Source of the DNA: a bacterium
GTDB taxonomy: Bacteria; SAR324; NAC60-12
Length of the DNA: 41,928 bases
Assembly: GCA_965233585.1 (NCBI GenBank)
Contig: CBDDTI010000224.1
Location: 1 to 41,928 of the forward strand
Direction of reading: 5' to 3'
The position numbers were made by a program, and so were the translations under genes. This document shows, one piece after another, positions 14,929-16,300 of the stretch. Numbering within the stretch: the stretch's first letter is position 1; the number at the start of each line of letters is the position of its first letter. The notes below the pieces were generated by a model. It searched no databases, was not told the DNA's origin, and saw only the letters and a list, made by a program, of their open reading frames with translations.

Positions 14929-15684
14929 TTATTGCTTCAGACTTTTAAGACATCTGTATAAGGACATAACACTGACACCTAAAACACGAGCCGTATTTTT
15001 GACGCTTGGATATGGATTTTTTGTTTCTTTTAAAAAGGCATAAGCACATGCCGCCAATAAAGTTCTAGGAGCAAAAGAACTATTTTCATTCTTATCCAGT
15101 TTTTCTTTAATGGACGACATTTCTTGATAGGTTAACTGTAGAGGCTGTAAAAAATATTCTGCCATATCTTTAGCCTTTATAGAATTTTCTGTTTTAATCG
15201 TGACAGCTAAATCTTGTCTGTATAATTTTATCCAACGCCACACCGTTTTTGGATTGATGTCAACTTCCTGACACAAATGACTTATTGGGCGGGGAATTTT
15301 TTCTTTTATTAAACCTTGATACAAAGTCATAACAACCAAGCCTTTTAAATTAATTTTAATTTTTCCGTTTTTTCGGTAATGCCACGCTGTTATTTCTGCC
15401 CACAAATTAAAAATAGCATTTGTGACATCATTATTTAAATGTAATTTACTGCATAAATTTTTTAAAAATTTTTTTTCTTTTCCCAAATGTTGATCGTTTT
15501 GTTCAATTTCTTTATTAAAATTTCTTATTTTTTCCCATTTTGTTTCTAAATTTGATTCGCAATATATTTTATCAATAACCAAACCACACTCAGTGCACAC
15601 TACGTCTCCTTGTCGGGTGTCTTCTATTAAATATTGATGATTGCACATCTTAATATAATCTAATTTTTTTGAACATAATTCCAT
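14929..15684 (-). CDS. TFIIB-like transcription initiation factor
   Basis: Zn ribbon CNH..LIEDTRQGDVVCTECGLVID, two cyclin-like repeats, and a C-terminal HTH SVKNTARVLGVSVMSLYR. Confidence 0.9.
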   Translation of the reverse strand: MELCSKKLDYIKMCNHQYLIEDTRQGDVVCTECGLVIDKIYCESNLETKWEKIRNFNKEIEQNDQHLGKEKKFLKNLCSKLHLNNDVTNAIFNLWAEITAWHYRKNGKIKINLKGLVVMTLYQGLIKEKIPRPISHLCQEVDINPKTVWRWIKLYRQDLAVTIKTENSIKAKDMAEYFLQPLQLTYQEMSSIKEKLDKNENSSFAPRTLLAACAYAFLKETKNPYPSVKNTARVLGVSVMSLYRCLKSLKQ

Positions 15685-15757
15685 TGTTTATTGAATGAAG
15701 ATCGAGATTCGACTGAAATACCAAATAAATGTGTGTAATGTTTTATTAGTATTGAAT

Positions 15758-16300
15758 TTATTCGGTTTTATATTTTTTAAACAATTCATAAATAATTTTA
15801 ATTCCTTGTTTAGCGTCTTGTTCGCTGGAAGCTCCAATTATTACTATTTTTCCAGACGAAAATAATAAAGCAGAACATTTTCTTAATGTTAAAAACATGC
15901 CAGGAAATTTTTCAGGATCATATCTCTTTTGCACAATTTCAAAATCTGCATTTATTTTTAGATTATTGAAAAATGTTGATAAATTAATTTCTGATTTTAT
16001 TTGATACAAACAAGTCATGTTTTCTATTTTAAACACTTCAATAATAAATTCGCTACTTATAACAAGTTTTAATTCGTCTAACGCTTTTGATATATGCTCT
16101 GTGGAAGGGATTTTAGTAATGTTTACGTGGAAATTTCGATTTTGCTTTGTTTTGGTAAACACAATAAAAGAATATTTTTTTTTAACAACGGTAAAATTAT
16201 TATAATGTTTCATTACATTATCAGTATTAAAAGAAATTTCATCACTGTTGATAAGACGAATTTTGCAACTGATTTTAACATTGCTAACCAACACTTCCAT
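15758..16300 (-). CDS. TATA-binding protein (TBP)-like
   Basis: Bipartite 180 aa core. The C-half FKIENM...YDPEKFPGM...SALLFSSGKIVIIGA matches TBP FKIQNM...YEPELFPGL...LIF.SGKVV.TGA. Confidence 0.92.
   Translation of the reverse strand: MEVLVSNVKISCKIRLINSDEISFNTDNVMKHYNNFTVVKKKYSFIVFTKTKQNRNFHVNITKIPSTEHISKALDELKLVISSEFIIEVFKIENMTCLYQIKSEINLSTFFNNLKINADFEIVQKRYDPEKFPGMFLTLRKCSALLFSSGKIVIIGASSEQDAKQGIKIIYELFKKYKTE

Follow-up and report, generated by a model that had tools for sequence, protein, structure and literature searches.

Large viruses that carry a TATA-binding protein (TBP) as well as a TFIIB have large genomes and, for the most part, an RNA polymerase of their own. The TBP-TFIIB pairs of large double-stranded DNA viruses (Nucleocytoviricota) are described as co-evolving and are proposed to form orthogonal systems (PMC7221094), poxvirus VITF-3 is presented as a TBP/TFIIB-like heterodimer (PMC12917281), and ariadnaviruses, devoid of RNA polymerase, are reported to retain a TFIIB (10.64898/2026.08.29.747986). 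Late TATT promoters of beta- and gammaherpesviruses are read by a viral TBP (BcRF1, ORF24 or UL87), the capsid promoter of Epstein-Barr virus (EBV) being TATTAAA (PMC4893493). The core set of Polintons, or Mavericks, comprises a family B DNA polymerase (PolB), an rve integrase, a packaging ATPase, a protease and capsid genes (PMC8097293). The stretch analysed here, hereafter the window, is contig CBDDTI010000224.1 (C224; 41,928 nucleotides) of assembly GCA_965233585.1, and contains a Polinton (copy 1) and a truncated second one (copy 2), both with adjacent genes for homologues of TBP and TFIIB. New here is a non-canonical box ahead of the genes for the capsid, the ATPase and a small virion protein.

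With Polintons/Mavericks (adintoviruses; Polintoviricetes) the element shares inverted repeats, a size of ~23 kb and the core gene set, from which it departs by the addition of TBP and TFIIB and, in some families, by two tandem capsid genes. Its PolB gene has five introns, unlike the intact vertebrate Mavericks, which are intronless (PMC8097293), a trait that is typical of the group and does not define it. As in the large viruses, TBP and TFIIB are virus-encoded and have diverged together; here, in contrast, the two genes are adjacent and lie in a 23-kb integrating element for which an earlier note on this DNA had reported no RNA polymerase, in agreement with the absence of any NADFDGD-type motif from the 44 element contigs scanned. 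Moreover, the window TFIIB is only 13-20% identical to viral TFIIBs, and the element TBPs fall on a separate branch. The late system of herpesviruses resembles the present one in having a viral TBP-like factor, a base other than A at position 4 of the box and, as proposed here, the host's RNA polymerase II (Pol II), the EBV promoter TATTAAA being identical to the first seven bases of the window capsid box (PMC4893493). The herpesvirus factor is, however, a large protein within a six-member complex for which no viral TFIIB is listed, as opposed to a 180-aa TBP with a TFIIB homologue; the resemblance is presumably convergent and concerns the way of working only. The cellular TBP-TFIIB/TFB core (PDB 1VOL, 1C9B, 1AIS) has the same folds, four phenylalanines, two asparagines, one stirrup glutamate, zinc ribbon and two cyclin folds, whereas identities to it amount to ~20-27%, the element TBP has neither the first helix nor the basic patch in its N-lobe, most of the B-reader is gone and the residues of the TBP-TFIIB contact are changed.

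The Fig. 5 legend in PMC8502044 (Starrett et al.; preprint 10.1101/697771) lists a TBP for a Polinton-like virus, with no TFIIB in its searched text or in the one supplement file searched. The main text of PMC7221094 does not mention polinton, maverick or virophage, no TBP or TFIIB terms occur in PMC11161782 (main text and one supplement), PMC10748475, PMC10120064 or PMC8097293, and the TFIIB of 10.1101/2022.05.25.493380 refers to giant viruses. Titles and abstract beginnings retrieved by full-text searches, a coverage that excludes most subscription papers and Repbase, contained no description of a Polinton TBP-TFIIB pair. The pair is real and conserved, and it is probably undescribed. Its genes in the two copies are the following.

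14929-15684, minus strand: TFIIB homologue, 251 aa, with zinc ribbon, short linker and two cyclin folds (Pfam, PDB profiles, AlphaFold/Foldseek)
15758-16300, minus strand: TBP homologue, 180 aa, with two lobes (Pfam, PDB profiles, AlphaFold/Foldseek)
34258-35013, minus strand: TFIIB of copy 2, intact, 90% identical to that of copy 1, with a ratio of non-synonymous to synonymous substitution rates (dN/dS) of 0.25 relative to it
35087-35628, minus strand: TBP of copy 2, frameshifted in an A-run near 35480-35510

The TBP homologue matches Pfam PF00352 at 3e-18 over its C-terminal half, the C-lobe alone being detected by sequence, and solved TBPs of the PDB at up to 2e-16. Its AlphaFold model (predicted local distance difference test, pLDDT, of 93) is a two-lobed saddle with a diverged N-lobe that lacks the first helix, and when submitted to Foldseek it retrieved TBP-containing entries in all of the top 39 rows shown (best E 2.5e-10). 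In an alignment of 30 relatives, F36, F48, F132, F147 and N94 show no variation, and at least 90% of the sequences keep N7; in several distant members the first intercalating phenylalanine is Tyr or Ile. Also invariant throughout the family are the changed residues K9, N60, K63 and I155, which are presumed to lie on DNA-facing strands. The N-lobe helix at residues 67-80 bears 2 Lys and 3 acidic residues versus five basic ones in a eukaryote-like TBP (L062), and both stirrup residues are acidic in the window protein. Protein searches gave 154 TBP relatives (the best 120 being listed), with genomic context known only where the locus was retrieved.

For the TFIIB homologue, Pfam detects the zinc ribbon (PF08271, 2.4e-8) and, weakly, the TFIIB repeat (0.004), while a 28-sequence family profile aligns with human TFIIB over its full length at 1.5e-11. 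Human TFIIB also ranks first in Foldseek (1.1e-8), global TM-scores being low on account of the flexible connection between the domains. The zinc ribbon is the best-kept part of the protein, and ~39 residues of the B-reader/linker are missing relative to human TFIIB, the remaining linker being unconserved and modelled at pLDDT below 50. By its profile and fold matches the protein is a TFIIB homologue, and not a canonical TFIIB, because the B-reader and B-linker are largely missing. No Brf is found among the 10 PDB sequences matched by the profile at E<=0.001; Brf ranks below TFIIB in Foldseek, and the protein stops after the second cyclin fold, without the C-terminal extension of Brf. Among distant members at E<=0.01, PF00382 is recognised in 28 of 34 and PF08271 in 30 of 34, and 271 representatives match the profile at E<=1e-10, the best 150 all measuring 293 aa or less. 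These matches agree with what the earlier note had read by eye: the four phenylalanines and both central asparagines of TBP, its diverged N-terminal half, the kept zinc ribbon and the shortened B-reader/linker of TFIIB, and the persistence of the pair in both copies, with TFIIB intact and TBP broken only in the A-run of copy 2. Clear profile and fold matches are thereby available for both proteins.

The two genes are adjacent and co-oriented on the minus strand, as had been stated, between the 133-aa open reading frame (ORF) with the integrase on one side and the major capsid gene on the other. Within the assembly, 42 TBP matches were obtained among 50 candidates, and the pair occupies this same position in about 41 copies. 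ORFs are intact for 39 of 42 TBP pieces and 40 of 43 TFIIB pieces, always adjacent and in the same slot. Both genes are present on 35 of the 39 capsid-bearing contigs, the other four being two truncated or rearranged members and two distant types. Fourteen TBP loci were retrieved outside the assembly, from seven other assemblies. In 10 of them TFIIB stands directly behind TBP (L023, L024, L028-L035); in L026 the sequence ends inside TBP, with the capsid gene head to head; L025 (1043-1501) holds a TBP of the family on a 1.5-kb contig without Polinton neighbours or embedded box; and the weak hits L036 and L037 contain no TBP ORF. Three of four further contig sets searched gave diverged copies over 27-30 of 30 bins each, and the fourth next to nothing. 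Scans of IMG/VR for relatives found one related element only, and an archaeal TBP query found nothing.

Median pairwise dN/dS of intact copies at dS below 1 is 0.17-0.21 for TBP and 0.17-0.27 for TFIIB, compared with 0.08-0.13 for the capsid gene and 0.05-0.10 for ATPase and integrase, the pairs compared not being independent among copies. TBP and TFIIB trees of 13 elements share 9-10 of 10 splits with the capsid and integrase trees, the lowest identities to the window being 30% for TBP, 24% for TFIIB and 25% for the capsid protein. In a TBP tree, 36 element-type rows are split from 18 archaeal-like, eukaryote-like and other viral rows by a branch with 96% support (SH-like approximate likelihood ratio test), in a quick, unfinished search with long branches and without animal TBP. 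The pair is fixed in a deep Polinton clade and co-inherited with capsid and integrase, and, as far as such a tree indicates, its recent capture from a host is unlikely. None of the three outcomes that the earlier note had named as contrary to its proposal was obtained: both proteins have profile hits, dN/dS does not approach 1, and the genes form a deep family of their own instead of nesting among host genes, again in a tree without animal TBP.

The candidate promoter box, TAT[C/G/T][T/A]AA[A/G], was derived from the upstream regions of 17 elements (8 from the assembly and 9 outside loci) by k-mer enrichment, which gave ATTTAAG/ATGTAAG in the assembly and TATCTAA in a distant group, subsequently merged. 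In the window it is found at these positions:

16225-16232, plus strand: capsid box, TATTAAAA(G), 84 nt upstream of the capsid start, on the opposite strand of TBP codons 23-26
20179-20186, minus strand: box of the 124-aa ORF, TATTTAAG, 34 nt upstream, intergenic
20932-20939, minus strand: ATPase box, TATTTAAG, 44 nt upstream, intergenic
35553-35560, plus strand: capsid box of copy 2, TATTAAAA(G), a recurrence of the copy 1 box

Copy 2 also repeats the boxes of the ATPase and of the 124-aa ORF on the minus strand, at 40017 and 39264, and the ATPase box with its eight preceding bases is near-invariant within a variable spacer. When counted between -125 and -20, with expectations from 300 dinucleotide shuffles, the box precedes the capsid gene in 14 of 15 elements (shuffled mean 1.8, maximum 5 in 300), a second capsid paralogue in 5 of 5 (0.3), the ATPase gene in 7 of 10 (1.9) and the 124-aa gene in 5 of 10 (1.0); for TBP, TFIIB, integrase and PolB it was found in 3 of 54 upstream regions, 5.1 being expected. 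Over all copies of the assembly the corresponding figures are 39/40 for capsid, 28/37 for ATPase, 29/31 for the 124-aa gene, 0/39 for TBP, 4/37 for integrase, 13/41 for protease and 14/40 for the 133-aa gene. The element-specific late promoters that had been postulated earlier now have a candidate sequence. No shared TFIIB-recognition element was found beside the boxes, and two distant capsid loci of another bin show neither box nor canonical TATA at the first start. A shared early promoter (TATA plus CAGT) was also considered; TFIIB is preceded by one in some of the assembly's families, with the right spacing in C47 and not in the window, and none is claimed.

The start codons of the head-to-head TBP and capsid genes are separated by -7 to 52 bp (by 8 in the window), a closeness that places the capsid box within TBP, on the other strand. 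The box covers the same TBP codons in 15 of 15 defining elements, in 3 of 3 further loci (L031, L033 and L035, of which L033 resembles L023) and in 39 of 39 intact TBPs of the assembly, compared with 43 of 388 occurrences of the same peptide pattern elsewhere. The residues encoded over the box vary (S/L/F, F/L, N/D/H, T/K/S/I/N), while Leu is written TTA in 12 of 12 cases (43% in these genes overall) and N/D/H codons end in T in 15 of 15 (57-65% overall). Because the residues vary and the choice of codon is fixed, the constraint at this site, as far as codon usage tells, is one on the DNA. A compatible tripeptide is present at the site in 85 of 90 TBP relatives, versus 20% by chance. In 18 of 18 loci, A is excluded from position 4 of the capsid box, which reads C, G or T there. 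The control is contig C304, a Polinton that carries genes for integrase, ATPase and capsid, TBP and TFIIB being absent from its 14.7 kb; its TATA is the canonical TATAAAA, and it has no box. Within 2392-10943 the canonical TATA precedes capsid, ATPase and four further ORFs by 27-30 nt, which leaves almost no 5' leader.

These observations make it fairly probable, in our judgement, that TBP and TFIIB constitute a two-factor module for late-gene initiation that recruits host Pol II, convergent with the TATT/vTBP system of herpesviruses. What carries this reading is sequence, namely the conserved pair, the box, the absent polymerase motif and the spliced PolB, whose spliceosomal introns argue for nuclear transcription by Pol II; the steps of binding and timing are those that we infer. 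Host machinery would first transcribe TBP, TFIIB and PolB. The viral TBP, with the DNA face of its N-lobe changed family-wide, would then bind the box rather than TATAAAAG, and host TBP would read the box poorly because position 4 is not A. The viral TFIIB would join it through a co-diverged interface and dock on host Pol II by means of the conserved zinc ribbon, so that capsid and packaging genes might be transcribed without host TBP and TFIIB, free of the regulators that grip the N-lobe of host TBP. Given the capsid promoter inside TBP and the starts 8 bp apart, late capsid transcription may run against that of TBP and damp it, as a built-in feedback switch. Loss of the basic N-lobe helix and the invariant changes on the presumed DNA-facing strands are consistent with such a module, and so is the apparent co-divergence of the TBP stirrup and the TFIIB residues facing it. 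A bolder version is put forward with some reserve, as somewhat less likely to hold than to fail: a widespread Polinton clade might carry a sigma-factor-like pair, a 180-aa TBP of changed box specificity and a TFIIB without B-reader, jointly sufficient to steer Pol II of the host to a TAT(non-A)WAAR code that is private to the element, with the capsid promoter in TBP as an autoregulatory switch and with TBP and box co-varying by lineage (TATTAA, TATTTA, TATGTA and TATCTA; TATCTAAG lineage).

Several points weigh against the module. The motif was fitted on the same related, non-independent elements, the held-out set being three loci, and the TBP-less control is the single partial contig C304. 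Enrichment is absent for the protease (1/13), the putative minor capsid (1/12) and the 133-aa gene (4/16), 6 of 8 families in the assembly showing a canonical TATA for the putative minor capsid, and the presence of the box upstream of TFIIB in 12 of 40 assembly copies (one family) blurs the otherwise clean split. The capsid box could, in part, reflect protein constraint. Regarding the proteins, of the acidic stirrup YDPEKF that had been singled out beforehand, E130 proved invariant in the 30 rows, but position 128 is Asp in only 3 of them (Asn in 18, Arg in 6, Ser in 2, Ile in 1), so that one of the two TFIIB-binding acids is not conserved. Likewise, the TFIIB Arg and Thr that are presumed to be the partners of the stirrup acids align to Ile and Pro, and the B-reader, which aids initiation in cellular TFIIB, is missing. 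Finally, EBV BcRF1 binds TATA and TATT alike in vitro and requires five more viral proteins (PMC4893493).

Among other explanations, the one that survives best, although unlikely, is a general booster: the box would be read by host TBP or a TBP paralogue, and the pair would only raise or shield transcription of the element, for instance by evading Mot1/NC2 or silencing, with no sequence specificity of its own. Variant TATA boxes can indeed work weakly with cellular TBP, several morphogenesis genes have no box, and the altered charge of helix 67-80 would fit evasion of regulators (PMC7221094). This explanation does not account for the exclusion of A from position 4 in 18 of 18 capsid loci, given that the TBP-less Polinton keeps a canonical TATA. 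Nor does it account for family-invariant changes at K9, N60, K63 and I155, if these face the DNA as we presume.

We give still less credit to a decoy or repressor, in which the B-reader-less TFIIB, with or without TBP, would bind Pol II or promoters unproductively and thereby shut off host genes or keep the element latent. The missing ~39 residues and the unconserved linker would suit this role; however, both proteins retain whole DNA-binding folds under purifying selection, a decoy would not need a dedicated box at an activator-like distance from structural genes, and several giant-virus TFIIBs are also short (210-270 aa). Use of pair and box by the RNA polymerase of a large DNA virus present in co-infection, in the manner of virophages, or by host RNA polymerase III (Pol III) instead of Pol II, is quite improbable. 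Virophage promoters reportedly depend on giant-virus factories, viral and cellular TFIIBs match the model about equally well, and one relative (L023) was binned as a giant virus, but the spliceosomal introns in PolB, the integrase with the many integrated copies, and a TFIIB profile that comes nearest to human TFIIB, without any Brf among its 10 PDB matches, all speak otherwise. A non-transcriptional role, with the pair tethering the neighbouring integrase to promoter-like DNA or binding termini in replication, is highly improbable, since the conserved box marks gene starts and not insertion sites and no part of TFIIB is kept better than its Pol II-docking zinc ribbon, even though the pair adjoins the integrase gene, a TBP-Brf1 complex targets Ty3 integrase (PDB 7q5b) and 5 of 33 element ends lie inside other copies.

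Apart from the initiation module that we favour, the element is organised as a Polinton. Copy 1 spans 9572-32534 (22,963 bp) between terminal inverted repeats, in keeping with the long repeats around 15-25 kb that are a trait of Polintons, and four further complete repeat pairs of 22.9-24.0 kb occur in the assembly. Its genes run in the order minor capsid (putative), integrase with chromodomain, 133-aa ORF, TFIIB and TBP (all minus), capsid and protease (plus), and zinc-finger protein, 124-aa ORF, ATPase and PolB (minus). The remaining features are as follows.

9572-10050, plus strand: left terminal inverted repeat of copy 1, 81% identical over 479 bp to 32130-32534 inverted; the same end is found at 33 places in the assembly
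11691-13424, minus strand: 577-aa ORF, putative minor capsid protein, in the same slot in relatives and with no significant Pfam hit
13431-14513, minus strand: retroviral-type integrase with C-terminal chromodomain (Pfam rve 1.6e-9, Chromo 2.4e-6)
14520-14921, minus strand: 133-aa basic ORF, with no Pfam hit, conserved slot, dN/dS 0.1-0.2
16309-17661, plus strand: major capsid protein of the double jelly-roll (DJR) type; ESM Atlas neighbours with PF21738 DJR-like in 15-24% of members
17668-18150, plus strand: adenain-like maturation protease (Pfam Peptidase_C5 0.005, below the curated cut-off)
18163-19776, minus strand: 537-aa protein with C2H2 zinc fingers (Pfam scan)
19778-20152, minus strand: 124-aa ORF, in a conserved slot adjoining the ATPase
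20200-20895, minus strand: A32-like genome-packaging ATPase (Pfam Pox_A32 5e-4, below the curated cut-off)
20959-27402, minus strand: PolB gene, presumably of the protein-primed type expected in Polintons, with five GT-AG introns; one exon hits DNA_pol_B_2/PF03175 at 9e-6 (25.3 bits, cut-off 25.8), polymerase motifs being visible
25372-25313, 24755-24695, 24442-24381, 24204-24138 and 23770-21753, minus strand: the PolB introns (GT-AG)
32130-32534, minus strand: right terminal inverted repeat of copy 1, inverted match to the left one
35637-36989, plus strand: major capsid protein of copy 2, matching that of copy 1

Some of these labels are assumptions of ours: the 577-aa ORF is taken to be a minor capsid protein from its position and by resemblance, the 133-aa ORF is presumably a virion core or membrane-active protein, and the C-terminus of the 124-aa ORF is, we presume, like that of adenovirus pX, the last two by resemblance alone. 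The capsid protein was recognised through Atlas neighbours just under the mark of the tool, with no direct Pfam hit. Support for packaging ATPase, protease and double jelly-roll capsid is moderate gene by gene, and jointly they appear consistent with the Polinton set. A single capsid gene is present in the family of the window; more distant families (L013, 5478-8219; contigs C47, C58, C93, C98 and C593) have two tandem capsid-like genes of ~445 aa each, with one box apiece.

The division of PolB over several ORFs was considered as decay, which is ruled out at five junctions, these being GT-AG introns. Four to five related families have these introns at identical positions, and in some families one of them is missing without a trace (the second in C47, the fourth in C98); the 5' part in copy 1, from ~27400 to 26280, is spread over three frames. 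The last intron (~2 kb) consists of GC-rich tandem repeats with overlapping repeat ORFs (21968-23678). The N-terminal region of PolB in the clade bears C2H2 fingers and an endonuclease VII-like (HNH) segment (window 25369-27402; L023, 1705-3720; L032, 3734-6313), and in L023 a 142-aa ORF, dUTPase-like by eye (3747-4175, minus strand), is nested between PolB pieces of the opposite strand.

The ends of copy 1 (9572-9590 and 32516-32534) read TTGT-AGAGAAATG; other families likewise end in ...TACAAC, and the outer TTGT is absent in some copies. No target-site duplication (6 bp in Polintons, which also have AG...CT ends) was found at symmetric offsets in the 5 complete pairs or among the 33 ends, where it may be masked by recombination or by joins between near-identical copies, and the flanks of copy 1 come from different targets, a gag-like ORF on the left and the minor-capsid gene of copy 2 on the right. 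Copy 2 begins at 32535, cut within its own minor-capsid gene, and is 89% identical to copy 1 over 6.1 kb. The gag-like ORF (756 aa, 7347-9617, plus strand; named by resemblance, with no Pfam hit) is cut by the left end of copy 1. The host flank further contains a THAP-domain ORF (4484-5113, minus strand, Pfam 1.6e-6), a palindromic repeat (3045-3472) and short tandem repeats (1250-2454), and near the right end of copy 1 there are a Thr/Ser-rich ORF with a signal-peptide-like start (30735-31208) and an acidic, apparently spliced ORF pair (29138-29913).

The 12-Mb assembly that includes C224 is classed as prokaryotic. Of it, 2.9 Mb belong to five gene-dense contigs, and the other 9.1 Mb, C224 included, are of low coding density, which indicates that the element sits in eukaryotic DNA. 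A prokaryotic origin of the window was rejected, since it falls among the 9.1 Mb of low-coding contigs beside the five gene-dense ones. The element is probably a nuclear, integrating Polinton/Maverick virus of a eukaryote, and its host probably an aquatic invertebrate. Taxa attached to the capsid in the ESM Atlas are Arthropoda and Echinodermata and rest on few members. The arthropod host assumed in the earlier note is not established. The assembly, graded 92% complete and 2% contaminated, includes ~9 Mb of eukaryotic sequence in which about 40 Polinton copies reside, and such elements also occur in four other bacterial bins (L028-L035) and in one giant-virus bin (L023).

For the timing of Polinton genes and the switch of an integrated copy to capsid making, this clade offers named candidate factors and a named box. 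Viral TBP-TFIIB systems are extended from large viruses to a 23-kb element, and the 'non-A at position 4' logic of herpesvirus late promoters appears to have an independent origin here. The 271 TFIIB-profile representatives (E<=1e-10), most of them without known context, provide a large natural series for the study of TBP specificity and of TFIIB without B-reader, and possibly orthogonal transcription tools. Should the sigma-factor-like pair hold true, no smaller orthogonal system for Pol II initiation would be known, and the pair would give a first handle on how Polintons enter their virion-producing phase.

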